DNA of 64,000 nt, from the NCBI RefSeq assembly GCF_030144855.1, contig NC_082710.1, forward strand, positions 171,740,001-171,804,000, read 5' to 3'. Both the position numbers and the translations under genes were made by a program. Below are positions 1 through 55,629 of the stretch, in pieces (positions within the stretch are counted from its first letter, which is position 1; each line of letters starts with the position of its first letter). This DNA comes from Hypanus sabinus. Taxonomy: Eukaryota. A model generated the notes under the pieces. The model did not search any database and was not told the origin of the DNA. It saw nothing but the letters and a program-made list of their open reading frames with translations.

Positions 1-1165
1 AAAATATTGTAAAGAAAATGAGACCGATATTTGTGATACTCGTGGTCAAATAACTGTAATATGGGGAAATGATGGGAGTACCAGTATAACAGTGGAAGTA
101 TGTGGTTTAGGTCGTGGTTCAGGAATAAAAGCTTATAAATCAAGCACAATATTGTGAATGTAATGGTAGTGTTGACGTGGACAGAAAGCACAAACGGGAT
201 AATCAGTTAGCCTGTCCCCCAGGCAAACCAATTGCAGTTGGTCATCGGGCATACACCTTACCCCATGGTATATTTAACAAATGATATGACAAATGAAGTT
301 CCAACTGTTACTAATCCTTTGCTGTGTGATGAGTTTCGGACAGATACAAAGGGAGGAGGATTTGTATTAGAAGAAATAGAAAAACAGATTACTCTATTTG
401 CATGTTAACTCCATTACAGAAAGTAACCTAAAGGTATTGGGGGTTGTACATACCTCATCTAGTATATCGACATGTGCAGGTGTGATAAATTTGACAGCAT
501 TCCAAATTCCTAGATGGAGTGGAATAAGCCTCCAAAAGCTTTTACAACATATATTAATTGAACAGTTTACCCATTTAGAATATGAAACAGGAGAGAATCG
601 AAGGAAAGGGTTTACTGAAATTATGTGTTTGGGTTACGCAACTGGCATTTCAACAGTAAATACTGTAGATATTGTAGACGGAAACTCTCAGTTTTATTCC
701 CTGACACAAAAGATGAAAGAAATTGTAAATTAGTATTAACTGGATACGGGAGGAGTTAGCACTTTAGGTAAGCAAAAAGCAAATATAGTTTAGAAAATGC
801 TCCTGCTCCAGGGAAATGGAAACTTTGAGAGGTATGACAAATCGAATTACTGTATTGACAGAGTTAATAATGAAACTATCCAACCCTCTAAAGATGCGGT
901 ACAATTTAAGAACCGAAGGTTTCCCGATTGAATTTTGCATGAACAACTGAAAGAATTGGTTGCTGCTAATGCCTCAGGATGTCACACTAGAGAATTCGTC
1001 TTGACAAATCATCTCCTTCGAAGTTGTAAGAATGGATATGGAGCACTGTATGTTAGAGCATTGCTTCATATTCCTTACCACATTGGCAACCGAACATACC
1101 GACTGTACAGTGTTGGAAATTATCAAGAAGGAGTTTGGATTTCACTTACCATTTCACCTACTTAG
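1..1165 (+). pseudogene. Decayed endogenous viral envelope / class I fusion glycoprotein (env-like) fragment, running off the window start
   Basis: Stitching frames across stops and shifts gives Cys-rich pieces (KYCKENETDICD.., YCECNGSVDVDRKHKR), then NRRKG|FTEIMCLGYATGISTVNTVDI (furin-like site plus fusion-peptide-like segment, 599-670), heptad-like helices (EMETLRGMTNRITVLTELIMKL) and LLHIPYHIGNRTYRLYSVGNY. There are several N-x-S/T sites. A CR1 3' tail truncates it at about 1166. Confidence 0.55.
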
Positions 1166-3680
1166 AAACATAGAAAACCTACAGCACAATACAGGCCCTT
1201 CGGGCCAAAAGGTTGTGCCTACCCTAGAAATTACTAGGCTTACCTATACCTCTCTATTTTTCTAAGCTCCATGTACCTATTCGAAACTCTCTTAAAAGAC
1301 CCCATCGTATCCGCCCCCATCACCTTTGCCGGCATCCCACTCCACGCACTCAAAACTCTCTGAATGAAAAACCTACCCCTGACACCTCCTCTGTACCTAC
1401 TCCCAAGCACCTTAAACCTGTGTCCTCTTGTGGCAACCTATTAAGCTCTGGAAAATGAGTATCTACACGATCAACGTCTCTCAACATCTTATATACTTCT
1501 ATCAGGTCACCTCTCATCCTCCTACGCTCCAAGGAGGAAAGGCCGTGTTTTCTCAAACTGTTCTCATAAGACATGCTCCCCAATCCAGGCAACATTATTG
1601 TAAATCACCTCTGCCCCATTTCTATGGCTTCCACATCCTTCTTGTAGTGAGGCGACCAGAACTGAGCACAGTACTCCAAGTGGGGGTCTGACCAGCGTCC
1701 TATATAGCTGCAACATTATGCCTTAGCTCCTAAATTCAATCCCACGATTGATGAAGGCCACCGTAAGCCTTCTGAACCACTGAGTCAACCTGCTCAGCTG
1801 CTTTGAGCTTCCTATGGACTTGAACCCCAAGAACCCTCCGATCCTCCACACTACCAAGAGTCTTACCATTAATACTATATTTTGCCATCATATTTGTCCT
1901 ACCAAAATGAACCATTTCACACCTATCTGTGTTGAACTTCATCTGCCACTTCTCAGCCTACCAATGTCCTGCTGTAAGCTCTGACAGCCCTCCGCACTAT
2001 CCACACCTCTAACCTTAGTGTTATCAGAAAACTTACTAATCTATCCCTCCACTTCCTCAAAACAGACCAGTCCCAGAACAGATCCCTGAGGCACTCCACT
2101 GATGACTGACCTCCATGCTGAATATGACCTGTCTACAACCACTGTTTGCCTTCAGTGGGCACTCCAGTACTGGATCCACAAAGCAATGTCCCCTTGAATC
2201 CCATGCCACCTTACTTTCTCAATAAGCCTTGCATGTGGTACCTTATCAAATGCTTTGCTGAAATCCATATACACTACATCTATTCCTCTTCCTTCATCAA
2301 TATGTTTAGACACATCCTCAAAAAATTCAATCAGGCTCGTAAGGCACGACCTGCCCTTGACAAAGCCATGACGACTATTCCTAATCATATTATTCCTCTC
2401 CAAATGTTCATAAATCCTGTCTCTCAGGATCTTCTCCATCAACTTACCAACCACTGAAGTAAGACTCACTGGTCTATAATTTCCTGGTCTATCTCTACTC
2501 CCTTTGTTGAATAAAGGAACAGCATTATAACAAGAGAAATTGAGTATGGGAGTAAAGAGGTCCTTCTGCAGCTGTACAGGGCCCTGGTGAGACCCCACCT
2601 GGGGTATTGTGTGCAGTTTTGGTCTCCAGATTTGAGGAAAGACATTCTTGCTATTGAGGGAATGCAGCGTAGGTTAACAAGGTTAATTCCCGAAATGGCG
2701 GGACTGTGATATGTTGAAAGATTGGAGCGACTGGGCTTGTATACACTGGAATTTAGAAGGATGAGAGGGGATCTGATTGAAACATATAAGATCATTAAGG
2801 GATTGGACACACTGGAGGCAGGAAGCATGTTCCCGCTGATGGGTGAGTCCAGAACTAGAGGCCACAGTTTAAGAATAAGGGGTAGGCCATTTAGAACAGA
2901 GATGCGTAAAAACTTTTCCACCCAGAGAGAGGAGGATATGTGGCATGCTGTGCCCCAGAAGGCAATGGAGGCCAAGTCTCTGGATGCTTTCGAGAGAGTT
3001 GGATAGAGCTCTTATAGATAGCGGGGTCAAGGGGTATGGAGAGAGGGCAGGAACGGGGTACTGATTGTGTATGATCTGCCATGATCACAGTGAATGGCGG
3101 TGCTGGCTTGAAGGGCCGAATGGCCTACTCCTGCTCCTACTCTCTATTGTCTATTCACATTCCTCCAATCCTCTGGAATCTCTCCCATCTCTATTGATGA
3201 TGCAACGGTCATCGCCAGAGGCTCAGCTATCTCCTCTCTCGCCTCCCACAGTAGCCTGGGGTACATCTCATCCGTGTCCGGCGACATATCCAACTTGATG
3301 GTTTCCAAAAGCTCCAGCACATCCTCTCGCTTAATATTTACATGTTCAGGCTTCTTATTCTGCTGCAAGTCGTCATTATTATCACCAAGAGCCTTTTCAA
3401 TAGTGAAATACTGAAGTAAGGTATTCATTAAGTACCGCTGCTCTTTCCTCTGGTTCCATACACACTTTACGACTGTCACATTTGCGAGGTCATATTCTTT
3501 CACGTCTTATCCTCCTGCTCTTCACGTACTTGTAGAATGCCTTGGTGTTCTCCTTAATTCTGCCTGCCAAGTCCTTCTCATGGCCACTTCTGGCTCTCCT
3601 AATTTCCTTTTTAAGTTATTTCCTGTTAGCCTTATAATCTTCTAGATCTCTAACATTACTTAGTTCTCTGAAGATTTTGT
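1166..3680 (-). mobile_element. CR1 LINE, 5'-truncated, interrupted by a second CR1
   Basis: 3' tail tagaaacatagaaaacc at 1164-1180. Minus-strand ORFs carry CR1 RT motifs ([48 protein letters not shown]). The sequence resumes at about 3153 (REEIAEPLA). Confidence 0.9.
2531..3152 (+). mobile_element. CR1 LINE 3' end nested in the previous element
   Basis: [19 protein letters not shown] and [16 protein letters not shown] motifs. 3' UTR ends gggccgaatggcctactcctgctcctactctctattgtctatt. Confidence 0.9.
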
Positions 3681-4069
3681 AAGGTTTTTTGATATTTAGC
3701 TTATGCTATTAAATGTGAATAATGTACAAAGGCAGTAAATGTGACTTCCTGTCATTGAAAAGGCACAAAGTTGTTCCGTCTGAGGACGTAGCTATGAAGG
3801 AGTTAAAAATTGTGGCTTTGTTTCTTTTAATAATTTTTCTCTATCTATTTTTCCTGTCAGTAGAGCACATTCCTAAAATTTGCTTTGGTGAATTTGCTAT
3901 TTGCTTCTTAAATTTGCTTCTTACATTGCTATTTCAAGCACACATTAATAGAATAGCTCTTTCATTTGCAATAAGAATAACTCTAATATTGAGGTTTCCA
4001 GTATTTCGAGGGACTTATCCTTAGCTGGGCTGTTACCAAATCGAGTTATAAGACCATTTATTAAACTAA

Positions 4070-7000
4070 ACATAGATAAGACCATAAGACATAGGAGCGA
4101 AGCCAGAGACTCCGCTCCGCCATTTCATCATGGCTGATCCAATTTTCCCCTCAACCTCAATCTACGTCCTTCTCCTCGTATCGTTTCAAGCCCTAACTAA
4201 TTAAGAATCTATCAATCGCTGCCTTAAATACACACTTAGACTTAAAATACATTAAGAAATTCCTCCTCGTGTCCGTTCAAAAAGGGCGCCAATCTATTCT
4301 GAGGCACTGTCCACTCGTTTTAGACTCTTACACCTTTGGAAACAGCCTCTCCAGATCCACTCGATCAAGGCTTTTCAACATTTGATAGGCTTCAATGAGG
4401 TCACCCCTCATTCTTCCGAACTCCAGTGAATACAGGCGTAGAGCCATTAGAAGCTTTTCATATGATTCCAATCCTGGAATGATTTTGGTGAACCTCCTTT
4501 GAACCCTCTCCCGATTCAGAATATGCTTTCTAAGATAAGGAGTCCAAAACTGCTTACAATACTCCAAGAGAGGCCTCAGCAGTGCTTCATAAAGTTTCAA
4601 TGTTACATCCTTGCTTTTGTATTCTAATCCTCTTGAAATAAATGTTAACATTGGATTTTCCTTCCTCAGCATGGAGTCAACCCGCGAATTAACCTTTAGG
4701 GAACCCTGCACAAGGGCTCCCAAGTCTCTTTGCACCTCAGAGTTTTGTATTCTTTTCTCCATTTAGAAATGGAGAAAATAGTCCACCCTTTCATTTCTTC
4801 TAAAAAAGTGCATGACCATACATCTCCCGACACTCTGTTTTATCTGGCATTTCTTTGCCCATTCTCCTAATCTAAGTCTTTCTAAGGCGATCTACTTCCA
4901 CAAAACTACCTGCCCATCTACCTAGCTAGATATTGTCTGAAAACCTAACAACACAGCCATGATTCCGGCCTTCAAATCCTTGGCATATAATGTCAAAAGA
5001 ATGGGTCGGAACACAGATACTTGTGGAAAATCACTAGTCAACGGCAGACAGCCTGAAAAGACACCCCTGATTCCCACTGTTTGCCTCATGCCAATCAGCT
5101 ACTTCTTTATCCATGCTAAAATCTTTCCTATAATACCATGGGCTCGTAGCTTTTTAATCAGCCCCATATGTGCACCCTGTGAAAGACCTATTGTTGTGTC
5201 AAGTACACAACATTAATCGATTCTCTTCTATCTCTTCTACTTATTATTTCTTCAAAGACTTTCAACAGATCTGGCAAGCAAGATTTTCCGATGATGAAAA
5301 CATGCTGAATTCGGCCTATTTTGTCATGTGCCTCAAAGTACCCTGAGACCCAATTCTTAGGAATCGACTCCAACACCTAGCCAACCACGGAGGTCAGACT
5401 AACTGTCCTATTGTTTCCATTCTTTTGCCTTTTCCCCTTTTTGAAGAGTGGAGTGACAGTTGTAATCTTCCTGTCTTTCTGAACCATTAAAGAATCTAAT
5501 GATTCTGGAAAGGTCATTATTAACAACTTCACAATCACTTCACAACCTCTATCGGAACTCTAGGCTGTACACCATCTGCTCCGGGTGTCCTAACTACCTT
5601 CTGTTGCAAGGGAGTGGCTGGGGACGAACCCAAGTGCAGGACACAGGCACAGAGACAGTGTCGAGAGGTGCTAGCACAGTTGCGAATGTGGAACAGATAA
5701 CCAGGGGAGTCTTGACTCGAAGACAAGGTTTTCGTAAAATAACTAGAGGATGGAGCGGAGCTTAGAACTAACAGTCCTCAGGGACCAGGAAACGAGGTTA
5801 ACACTCACTGGAATCGACCAACGAACTGGCGACCCATGGCTGTTAGCCAGAGTTCTTATCCTATATTCTCTGATGGGAACCAGGTGTGCTGTAATTAATT
5901 GAACTAGCAGCAATTGGGAATCAGACGACGGGATGTAAGGCCCAATCAAGGAGATAGGAGCGAGATGGGGAATAGCCAGACGGGACCATGACACCTTCAG
6001 ACCTTTCAGTTACCCAAGAACCGTCTTGCTAGTTATAGCAACTTCACACGCATCCTGCCCCATGATTTCTGGGACTTCTACAATGCAGCTATTGTCTTCC
6101 ATAGGGAAGACTGACAGAAATTACTTATTCAGGTCTTCCCCCATTTCGTTTGTTCCCATTACTACCTCTCTAGCATCGCATTCCAGCGTTCGGATATCCA
6201 CGTTCTCCTCTCATTTACATTTTGTGTCTCTGAAGAAACGTTCAGCTCTTCTGTAATATTATTAACTAGCTGACTTTTATCTTCGTAATTACTTTTTTAG
6301 ATGCTGTCAGTTGGTTTATAAAAGCTTCCCAATCTAACTTCTCACTAATGTTTGCTTTATTATAAGTCCTCTCTTTGGCTTATATGTTGGCTTTCAATTT
6401 TCTTGTTAGCCATGGTTGTGGCATCTTTCCTTTGGAGTACTTCTTCCTCTTTGGGATGCACGTACTCTTTACCTTCCGAATTGCTTCCAGAAATTTCAGT
6501 CAATGCTGCTCTGCCGTCATCTCCCCCAGTATTCTTTTCCTATCAACTCTGGCCAACTCCTCTCTCATGCCTCTGTAATTCCCTTTATTCCCATGTGATT
6601 CTGATACATCTTGACTTTAGCTTCTCTTTCCTAAATCTCAAGGTGAATGCGATCATATTATGATTACTTTCCTCTCAGGGCTCTTCTACCTTTAAGATCT
6701 CTAATTAATTCTGGCTCATTGCACAACTCCTAGTGCAGAATAGCTGATCATCTGGTGGGTTTATCCACGAGCTGCTCTAAAGATGCAGCTTGTAGGCATT
6801 CTAGAAATTCACCCTCTTGGAATCCAGCACCAGCCTCATTTTCCCAATCTAACTGCGCATTGAAGTTTCCCATGAATATTGCAACATTGTTCTGTCTCTG
6901 GCTGTAATCTGTAGGCCACCTCCTTACCACTGTTTGTGGGTCTGTATACCACTCGCATCAGAGTTGTTTTCCCCTGGCAGTTCTGTAGCTTTATCCATAA

Positions 7001-7190: not shown

Positions 7191-8849
7191 CACCCTTCTC
7201 CATTTTGTTAGTATCAATGATACGGTGGAACGCTTACTAAGACATTTACCTACTGCCTATCTCTCATTTTACTGCACAGTGGAATAAAGTTATTAACCAT
7301 AACGGAGCTCTTATTAAACAAAGGAACGTCTTATCGAAGATTATTAGAGATCATGCTGACTTAGGTAACGATGTTTTCCAGAATACACCTTTTTGGAATG
7401 AAGTTCTATGAATGTTAAAGTACAACCTTGGATTCGTCTTATGTTATCTCTTTTGTTACGTGGTTTTGTTATTGTTGTTCTAGTGACTATTCAATGTATT
7501 TGCCCAAGTTTTTGGATAGCAAGTTTAAATGTTTACATGGTAGATATATTCCAAATCTCTTTTTGGTGATTTGTCTGACTTTATTAAATATGAAAGAAAA
7601 CACCGAACTCGAATGGGTCAACGAGAGCTGGAAGTTGTCCTTGCTATGTGCATGGAGGGTTGGAGGCTGCCAGTTTGTGAAGCTGCTCTATAAACTTATA
7701 TCTTATGAACGATTTGATGAACAGATTCTTGCTCTGGGATAACGTTACCAGGGCAATAGACGGGGACACAAGAAAATTCTGCTCGTAGTCTGTTAAATCG
7801 GAGACCATTTTCAAACTAGGGGCTTATTGTGTGCAATGTCAGGTTTGCAGAATTAATTTCGTTGTCTCCGCTTAGTGTCTGCGTGACCCGGTTTGACCGG
7901 TTTGAAGCAGAGTCGAATAGAACAAAATAAGTCACCTACGGCACGAAGTGTTGTAGACACTGGCTACATCCGATAAGAATCTGACACAGTTTGGTCAAAT
8001 GACCTCGAGCCAATGAATTGAAACGTAACGTTTGAACTGATAAGGAAAGAGTACAAGAATGCAAGGGGGTGAGAAATTCGACGACTAAATACAGGAAGGA
8101 AGACTTTCATGCTAGGGGCTGGGAGAAGAAGAATCAATCGGGTGACCAACGGGAGATTCTCTATATTTGTGTTATACATTGGAGAAGCGCTCTGAGTGAG
8201 CATTTAAAGATTCAAGGTTTAAAGGATATTGGTTATGAAAGTATGTATGCGATTTTGAACCCTCAGATTTGTCTTTACAGGCAAGCAGGAAACGAAGAAA
8301 ACCATGGAACCCGTTCAAAGGAAACCATCAACCACCCCCAACAAAGCGCAAATATTCGCTTAGACGGCAAAAAATGGGCGGAAATACAAAATCGAAAGAG
8401 TTCAGGCACGTTCAGCTCAGTTCCGGATATTAAGGAAGTTGAAGCAAATACAACGCTACTCATACATGGAATGGTAGCATTAGATTTGCTTGGGCATTTG
8501 GCAAATTAGTTGATCTGCGGAAAAGAATCGAATTTCTGTTAAGTTTAGCTCCACTGTTTTTCTCTCTGTAACGCTCACGTGGTTTTGTTATTTTTAATAG
8601 GCTCTCGTCACTTACAATATCACCAGGCCGCTGTTCTGACCAAAACTGACTGCTCTAAGTAAATGGAACAATTTAGGCCTTCTTATCAGCCCGTGTCCTT
8701 TCTAAGTACTTGAATTGTTCCAGAAGTGTTGTGCTCAGAAGCCACGTATGGGGAATGACTAAAAATTAATATAAATTGAATTTACATGTTTTGATTCATT
8801 TGCCGTAGTACCGTGAATTGATCTGAGACTAAAAGGAGCTACGAAATGA

Positions 8850-25707: not shown

Positions 25708-26053
25708 GATGTGCTGAAGGAAGCATAACAATCATCCACTCGCCTCAGCAGGTCGCCGTTGCTGAAGCAGAGACGTTGCAGATCATGTGTATTTTCAGTC
25801 ATGCTACAAGTTATTCAGAGATCAATGCAATTGGAGCAATCAGATGGTACAACGAAGTGGCAACATGTTCCGTTTCCGATAACTGCACCTGGTATAATGT
25901 CCGCTTCCGGGAACATAGTTCACCTGAAATTCCAAGAGCATCTCTCGATGTATCCGACTTCAGAATGAAAAATGCAAGACAGTGTTAATGTGGATGTTTC
26001 CATGGATCAAATATACGTTGGAAACGGACAGCCGGAAGGTTACACTGCCTAAC
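25708..26053 (+). pseudogene. Pseudogenised NKp30/NCR3-like Ig V(J) exon
   Basis: Phase-1 acceptor tttatag|GA. Translation GCAEGSITIIHSPQQVAVAEAETLQIMC..IGAIRWYNE..SVSD..YNVRFR..SLDVSDFRMKNARQC*C aligns with the intact V exon at 54855. TAA at 25986-25988 falls in the YYC motif. Frameshifts occur before and after a YVGNG J-like motif, and the donor is degraded (aac|gtttac). Confidence 0.8.
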
Positions 26054-54854: not shown

Positions 54855-55196
54855 GAACTGCAGGAACTAACGGAATAATCAAACAATCGCCAGAACAACT
54901 CACGGTTACCGAAGGAGGCACGGCGCAGCTGAGTTGTAGTTACATCAATAAAATAAACGATGCAAAGAAGCTGGTCGGAGCCATTACCTGGTACAAAGAC
55001 GAGGAATACCGTATTGTTTCCAACAAGTCCAGCGGGTTTCATGGTCGGGTGAGGACCAGCAGTGCAGCGCGCATTCTAAGCCAATCTATACAAATTGTCA
55101 ACGTCAGAATGAACGATACAGGAAAGTATTACTGCAGAGTAGTCCTTTTTGGGCAGGAAGATCATTTTGGAAAAGGGGCACAAGTTACAGTCACAC
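54855..55196 (+). CDS. NCR3: Ig V-set (germline VJ-type) exon of an NKp30/NCR3-like receptor
   Basis: Acceptor tttctttctggttacag|, donor AC|gtaagt, phase 1/1, 342 nt, open frame. Has QLSC, AITWYKDE, FHGRV, NDTGKYYCRV and FGKG..VTV. By eye it resembles human NKp30 (IGSVTWFRDE, FRGRL, HDASIYVCRV, GTGNGTRLVV). No RSS seen. Confidence 0.8.
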
Positions 55197-55629
55197 GTAA
55201 GTTCGGCTTATATTACATTTATATTCGACGTTTGATTCGCATTTCTCCCTTCTGCAATATAGTGTACCTCAGTGCAAATTTAGAGAAATAAATTCGGAAT
55301 ATCATTGACATACTGAAAGTGAATTAAATGATGACAAAATAATGAAAGGTAAATTAACATTGCTATCGACTTAATCAAGTTAATTTTTATCGGAGAGTGT
55401 TAATCCAATCTGTTCGCAGGAAAACTGCACCAGCAGAAAGAAATCAAATAAGCATCCGGGTAAAAATGCTGGGGTTGTTCAGCATCATCTCGGAAACGGC
55501 AGTAGTCAGTCCTAAGTGAGCCTACATTATTTTACTTGCACGTTCAGTGTTTTACCACCCTCATCAATATCCGCAAAGGGAAAAACATGAATTCGTATTT
55601 AAGCCTCAGAGCTTTGGAATATATGACTT

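Follow-up and report, generated by a model that had tools for sequence, protein, structure and literature searches.

Class I fusion proteins act through furin cleavage, insertion of a fusion peptide and fold-back of heptad repeats. Retroviral env genes captured by their hosts are common in vertebrates, with 177 gag/env events cited (PMC8922424), and teleost cases have also been described (PMC12813294). In cartilaginous fishes, a 2026 preprint has screened 36 chondrichthyans with syncytin baits, requiring both an immunosuppressive domain and a CX6-7C(C) motif, and its main text names neither Hypanus, Hemitrygon nor stingrays (bioRxiv 10.64898/2026.05.06.723177). Endogenous retroviruses (ERVs) resembling snakehead retrovirus (SnRV) are known from the elephant shark, as CmiERV lineage I (Han 2015, PMC4422223), and belong to clade Huo (Xu 2018, PMC6001957). 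Lokiretroviruses differ in their reverse transcriptase (RT), since all loki rows inspected in the alignment of Wang and Han carry PFG before the NS/NA-(P/G) motif (PMC7947760), and the foamy virus Env shares the fold of the paramyxo/pneumovirus F protein (PMC11468914).

The locus described here lies at the start of a 64,000-nucleotide stretch of the Hypanus sabinus genome (hereafter the window). With a probability of about 80%, we read it as the dead, LINE-split env of an old, likely SnRV-like ERV with a predicted F-type class I fusion protein as its Env; in the same reading, an intact paralog on another chromosome (C28) was likely captured as a host gene.

Positions 1-1164 are the middle of a decayed retroviral env gene that aligns in four pieces to the open reading frame of the intact paralog (Table 1). 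The motifs named in an earlier sequence-only reading are all present in frame 2, namely N-R-R-K-G at 596-610, the Gly/Ala/Thr hydrophobic peptide starting at 608, heptad-like segments and LHIPY..YRLYSVG at 1064-1117. The extent of about 1.15 kb given in that reading was too narrow, since the env begins 256 nt upstream of the window and runs to 7562. The basic cleavage site that it proposed is there with its register shifted by one residue, N-R-R-K corresponding to R-R-R-R of the paralog and the following G opening the putative fusion peptide. LINE insertions, which from their motifs we take to be CR1-like at 1165-3700, sit between the last three env pieces. The check for pol and LTRs nearby was positive, as an LTR pair and an RT remnant flank the copy; because the RT fragment lies directly behind the 5' LTR, gag and most of pol must have been deleted.

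Table 1. Features of the window copy and other coding-like segments, numbered from the first nucleotide of the window
Feature	Position	Strand	Basis and remarks
RT fragment	~7485-7043 nt upstream of window		directly after the 5' LTR
env piece 1, surface-subunit region	1..396 (begins 256 nt before window, -256 to 396)	+	paralog ORF nt 1-693; P0002 residues 10-243, in three frames; stops and frame changes
env piece 2, from the end of the surface subunit through cleavage site, fusion peptide and first heptad region to the start of the beta-rich domain	465..1164	+	57% identity to P0002 residues 253-494; ORF nt 703-1451
degenerate basic cleavage site N-R-R-K	596..607	+	aligned to R-R-R-R of the intact paralog
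putative fusion peptide	608..673	+	from position and hydrophobicity; same position in a loki-type Env
LINE insertions splitting env	1165..3700	.	RT-like ORF 2152-2673; 80% match to other window repeats
env piece 3, cysteine-rich beta domain	3701..4078	+	ORF nt 1449-1813; P0002 residues 496-615
env piece 4, toward second heptad and membrane anchor	7212..7562	+	ORF nt 1812-2185; P0002 residues 617-683
3' LTR remnant	~7583..8204 (limits approximate)	+	5' partner ~7790-7485 nt upstream of window
second V-like exon	25731..25991	+	more distant, 28% identity
Ig V-set exon	54869..55204	+	Pfam V-set E 8e-13; J-like FGKG motif at end

The env-like coding signal is real, since the intact paralog protein P0002 matches window 1-1165 with E 4e-91, against E 0.011 for the best of 100 shuffles; Pfam returned no family for any of the four env readings of the window frames. 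The env frame of the window copy holds 9 stops and 25 non-triplet gaps (the latter count inflated by alignment noise), and its LTR pair is at a K2P distance of 0.35 over 254 nt. Its branch length is 0.170 for second codon positions against 0.195 for fourfold sites (ratio 0.87), as expected of neutral decay. With its stops, frame changes, LINE insertions and this ratio, the copy displays neither the intact ORF nor the selection that characterise a captured gene. It is incapable of the fusogen cycle and most likely does nothing itself; taken alone, it is an ordinary fossil, SnRV-like ERVs being already known from a cartilaginous fish. The two V-set-like exons listed in Table 1 are probably the receptor cluster next to which the env was said to lie; they exist, but at such distances that "next to" is a loose description.

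Searching the H. sabinus genome for this env gave at least 70 matches at 64-83% identity, distributed over at least 38 loci, a lower bound based on 40 scored out of 61 candidates. Seven of these loci lie in tandem on C28 and the other 31, the window copy among them, are found elsewhere; all 17 dispersed copies examined are broken, with about 14 stops per 2.2 kb. The earlier description of the stretch as non-TE was thus justified as far as LINEs are concerned, but not for dispersed repeats in general. A sister copy (L047) carries the Pfam domains RVT_1, RT_RNaseH, RNase_H and Integrase_H2C2 upstream of env and, by eye, a CCHC-like knuckle upstream of pol. The arrangement of RT, tether, second RNase H and integrase is present in L047 and in P0057/P0058 (Pfam). 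The family order is LTR-gag-pol-env-LTR, with gag judged by eye, and in related subfamilies the same kind of env is joined to the same kind of pol. Inspection of the LTR ends by eye revealed no clear target-site duplication.

The sister subfamily includes a far younger provirus (L065 1156-9031, C19:148.74 Mb), whose LTRs are 3.3% apart and whose internal region is broken. Near-identical sister-subfamily copies also occur on unplaced contigs (L061, L063 and L071 on C1379, C596 and C1714, and many other small contigs), a recurrence which suggests that the subfamily was caught up in an amplified tandem unit. Upstream of a sister-subfamily gag-pol there is a coiled-coil-like ORF (L067 2820-3578, P0059) that calls to mind the 'smc'-like ORF described from lokiretroviruses; Pfam gave no match to it above cut-off.

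The retroviral lineage was addressed with an RT tree of 49 rows, comprising 12 rows from this genome and 37 of 51 matches (39 were given and two dropped as short). All 12 own-genome rows form one clade (100/100), in which the window-copy RT fragment, whose row fills 29% of the columns, belongs to a seven-row subclade (100/99). This clade groups with amphibian and coelacanth 'NYNRIN-like' Pol proteins (99/98), apart from the foamy-type, gypsy and orthoretrovirus rows, in a tree that has a single foamy-type row (P0089) and no SnRV, loki or fish foamy-like RT references. In a hand count over 138 RT residues of the sister-subfamily protein P0060, about 77 were identical to SnRV, about 58 to Loki-Lch and about 57 to bovine foamy virus (BFV). 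Moreover, the family has LPQG in its RT motif, as does SnRV by eye in the alignment of Wang and Han (PMC7947760). By hand count and motifs, then, the family is likely snakehead-retrovirus-like and a member of clade Huo. A search of viral contigs gave no match, and SnRV was not found among them. Besides the RT motifs and these identities, the family shares with SnRV and SnRV-like ERVs a cartilaginous-fish host and the order LTR-gag-pol-env-LTR; it differs in having a ray host and several subfamilies, and the sequence comparison with SnRV covers its RT. The literature searched contained no statement on an F-like SnRV Env. The sequence-only reading, which had proposed a viral env of uncertain lineage with foamy and loki elements among its candidates, was right about the viral env, whereas the likeliest lineage is outside its list.

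The intact protein P0002 (745 aa) has a hydrophobic N-terminus, a R-R-R-R/G site at about residue 294 followed by a hydrophobic peptide. Beyond these come long helices (predicted), a beta region rich in cysteines, another helix and, near 700-720, a membrane anchor; the protein has nine sequons. As had been noted for the window copy, gamma-type (syncytin class) motifs are absent: P0002 has no CX6CC and no CXXC. There was nothing above cut-off for P0002 in Pfam and no match among PDB sequences, and word-based homolog searches returned P0002 alone. HMMER retrieved 36 relatives, of which 20 were looked up; these comprise 15 from sharks, skates or sawfish (two fused into host gene models), two from frogs and P0036, the rest being also elasmobranch. 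P0036 has a Fusion_gly match in Pfam (E 5e-6) and, judged by eye, looks like a published loki Env; a profile of the P0002 family built without P0036 still matches it (hhalign 98.6%, E 1e-15).

When sequence profiles were compared with the PDB, no F protein was found without the P0036 row, and E 0.007 was reached with it. A structure model was built from a 34-row alignment including P0036 (pLDDT 61.7, pTM 0.42, residues 1-220 poorly modelled); the single-sequence fold, with pLDDT 37.7, was set aside. The best Foldseek matches of the model were the F proteins of RSV, Langya and hPIV3 (E 3e-10 to 1e-8, with TM-scores of 0.2-0.3), so the structure-prediction check against viral fusogens gave F proteins first, for a fold that is itself predicted. 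The best VIA match was NDV F (Z 9.5, rmsd 14.6, 323 aligned), and among predicted viral structures lispivirus, baculovirus, walleye retrovirus and foamy glycoproteins were matched. An Atlas model pointed to the Baculo_F and Fusion_gly clusters (TM 0.34-0.38); the Atlas feature scores, all below 0.9, are leads only. Taken together, these results predict a paramyxo/pneumovirus F fold for the Env, which would be an F-type class I fusion protein; given the low TM-scores and the presence of P0036 in the alignment, the fold stays a prediction. The fold searches and the P0002 alignment support the earlier call of an endogenous viral env with a class I fusogen layout. The predicted fold of P0002 residues ~227-610 is the one that paramyxo/pneumovirus F and foamy Env share as 'subclass Ib' (PMC11468914), but identity is 8-14%, P0002 has an extra N-terminal region of about 200 residues and it is encoded by a provirus. 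Because foamy Env has this same fold (PMC11468914), the fold does not name the lineage.

Two other relatives, P0012 (Chiloscyllium punctatum, 739 aa) and P0016 (Pelodytes ibericus, 723 aa), are further full-length F-like Envs and candidates for young proviruses or independent captures. In Pristis pectinata (P0015) and Heterodontus francisci (P0031), env fragments of the family sit inside host gene models (TRP channel-like and an fbxo15 isoform, respectively), by either exonisation or annotation artefact.

Several other origins for the element have to be weighed against a SnRV-like one. If the element were a lokiretrovirus, the first such case from cartilaginous fish, it would share with that group the dual RNase H and the F-like Env, which has a signal peptide, basic site, fusion peptide, coiled coil and anchor in the same order; the Env is homologous to the loki-type Env P0036 by the profile match given above, and the closest Pol records are labelled 'NYNRIN-like'. 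However, the family has LPQG where the inspected loki rows have PFG, its RT identities are fewer to Loki-Lch than to SnRV, and Loki-Lch Pol differs from the Latimeria record with which the family groups. In addition, the Envs are only about 19-25% identical, and none of six chondrichthyan genomes was positive in Wang and Han (PMC7947760), in which lokiretroviruses are unreported from Chondrichthyes. We consider this origin very improbable, and it was dropped on the published RT alignment signature. Hardly better placed is a foamy-like ERV, to which the shared F fold (PMC11468914), a foamy match in the fold searches (VIA Z 7.9) and a best PDB integrase match to PFV integrase would point; against it, P0089, a single foamy-type reference on a long branch and the only Pol with Spuma_A9 in the tree, is not part of the 22-row clade (99/98), the RT shares only about 57 of the 138 counted residues with BFV, and L047 has its CCHC-like knuckle (by eye) upstream of pol. 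As for a host pseudogene, a non-retroviral insertion of a paramyxo-like F gene or mere chance, the missing Pfam match and the structural matches to Mononegavirales F proteins would suit them, but LTRs and pol flank env both here and in sister copies, the family occupies at least 38 loci and the shuffle control was clear; the chance of any of these is negligible, the linked pol and LTRs refuting them.

The intact paralog belongs to the seven-copy array on C28 (G000:C28:117.66-118.41 Mb), whose units are about 100-170 kb apart, three on the + and four on the - strand. Each unit contains an env and a leader-exon region; one env is intact, with an open frame of 741 codons that equals P0002 except for the first residues, and all six duplicates are frameshifted. 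The provirus around the intact copy is old, its LTR pair having a K2P distance of 0.284 over 402 nt, or about 0.14 per site since insertion, and its gag-pol is ruined, only a decayed 3' part of pol remaining. In three-point branch lengths, taken between the intact copy and 17 of the 31 dispersed copies, the env branch at second positions was 0.055 (95% 0.038-0.075), compared with 0.170 (0.143-0.200) for the pol remnant and 0.132 (0.095-0.178) for the LTR, without overlap between the bootstrap interval of the env and either of the others. The fourfold branch of the intact copy was 0.24; part of its branch may be viral evolution that preceded insertion.

A protein of equal length, 96% identical to P0002 and with the same leader, is present in Hemitrygon akajei (P0004, 745 aa), and it is closer to the intact copy (96%) than to the six duplicates (93-94%). 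Furthermore, sequencing run X1, from a related organism, contains one contig over most of the ORF with about 45-47 differences and no gap. Among the 40 differences listed, over 1662 nt, 20 are synonymous and 20 non-synonymous, with no stop, corresponding to a dN/dS of about 0.28 (Fisher p 1e-4). X1 is nearest to the intact copy (2.4% against 3.1-3.5%). By two tests the C28 env is under purifying selection, with a weak signal within the tandem array, where pairwise dN/dS among the seven copies is 0.49-0.85 and the private changes of the intact copy (11 non-synonymous, 4 synonymous) are not enriched in synonymous ones, itself a weak indication. Given its intact frame, its near-identity to a protein of a second stingray genus and its slow rate of change, the C28 env was likely captured as a host gene.

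Expression is suggested by a second X1 contig that exits the genome at an AG acceptor (L033 5420) and resumes 5.4 kb upstream in an exon with a GT donor at its end and coding sequence for the first residues of P0002. A contig from X7, a genome-sized run, crosses the acceptor point unspliced. X1 is one run from another organism with a guessed RNA status, and none of the runs holding the sequence is listed as RNA on record. About 1.7 kb separate the leader exon from the 5' LTR of the provirus downstream of it, and the exon sits within a different dispersed repeat of about 0.9 kb. This repeat (L034 ~513-1409, C28:118011.5-118012.4 kb) has TG...CA-like ends by eye and three other copies with no nearby pol or env, and is possibly a solo LTR of another family.

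These data bear on whether the C28 env might be a lucky survivor, or a younger env in an old provirus, that is transcribed by accident from a nearby repeat and is no host gene, with the window still correctly called. In its favour, all six tandem duplicates are broken, dN/dS within the array is 0.49-0.85, a much younger relative exists in L065 and the leader exon lies in a dispersed repeat. Nevertheless, the intact copy has accumulated about 0.14 substitutions per site after inserting, without acquiring a stop or frameshift, whereas the 17 dispersed copies carry about 14 stops per 2.2 kb; dN/dS against X1 is about 0.28, Hemitrygon retains an intact protein of equal length with the same leader, and L065 falls in the other RT subclade. 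We therefore regard survival by luck as improbable, though less so than any of the other origins weighed above, and capture by the host as the likely reading.

The captured C28 env would resemble syncytins, percomORF and Seb-env3/4 (PMC12813294) and the chondrichthyan syncytin-like Envs (10.64898/2026.05.06.723177) in being an intact env in a ruined provirus, with purifying selection, conservation between taxa and apparent transcription, here a spliced junction in one X1 contig. Unlike the candidates of the chondrichthyan preprint (10.64898/2026.05.06.723177), all of which have an immunosuppressive domain and CX6CC, P0002 lacks the cysteine motifs CX6CC and CXXC. The class of captured env to which the C28 gene likely belongs is one that the syncytin-baited screen was not designed to detect. 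No published description of the gene turned up in the literature searched, mainly openly accessible papers and the main text of that preprint.

As a viral protein, the Env would form a trimer whose basic site furin cleaves; the cleaved form would then insert its fusion peptide, the two heptad regions would refold and the membranes would fuse. The C28 gene would be transcribed from the leader exon outside the provirus, and its 745-aa product appears to retain signal peptide and anchor as well as furin site and fusion peptide, and would thereby be displayed at the cell surface, cleaved and able to fuse membranes. As every visible part needed is kept, a surface fusogen fits best, and cell-cell fusion in the host comes close to an even chance as its putative job. 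Blocking the receptor of related viruses, which would fit the duplication and loss seen in the C28 array, is a possible but less favoured role, and some other function is unlikely. It is tempting, if doubtful, to suppose that stingrays domesticated the F-type env of a snakehead-like retrovirus, under a leader exon from outside the provirus, as a syncytin analogue for the live-bearing uterus or another fusing tissue, which would make it a captured vertebrate fusogen of a structural class other than that of the gamma-type syncytins.

Two points give the locus its interest. First, a likely SnRV-like pol is tied to an Env with a (predicted) F fold. F-type envelopes would then be common to the SnRV-like, loki and foamy lineages, which bears on the origin of the retroviral env. 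Second, live-bearing rays likely have a captured env that was outside the reach of the 36-species syncytin-baited screen, and through the C28 env it can be asked of a specific gene whether the capture of env accompanies elasmobranch viviparity or serves antiviral defence.
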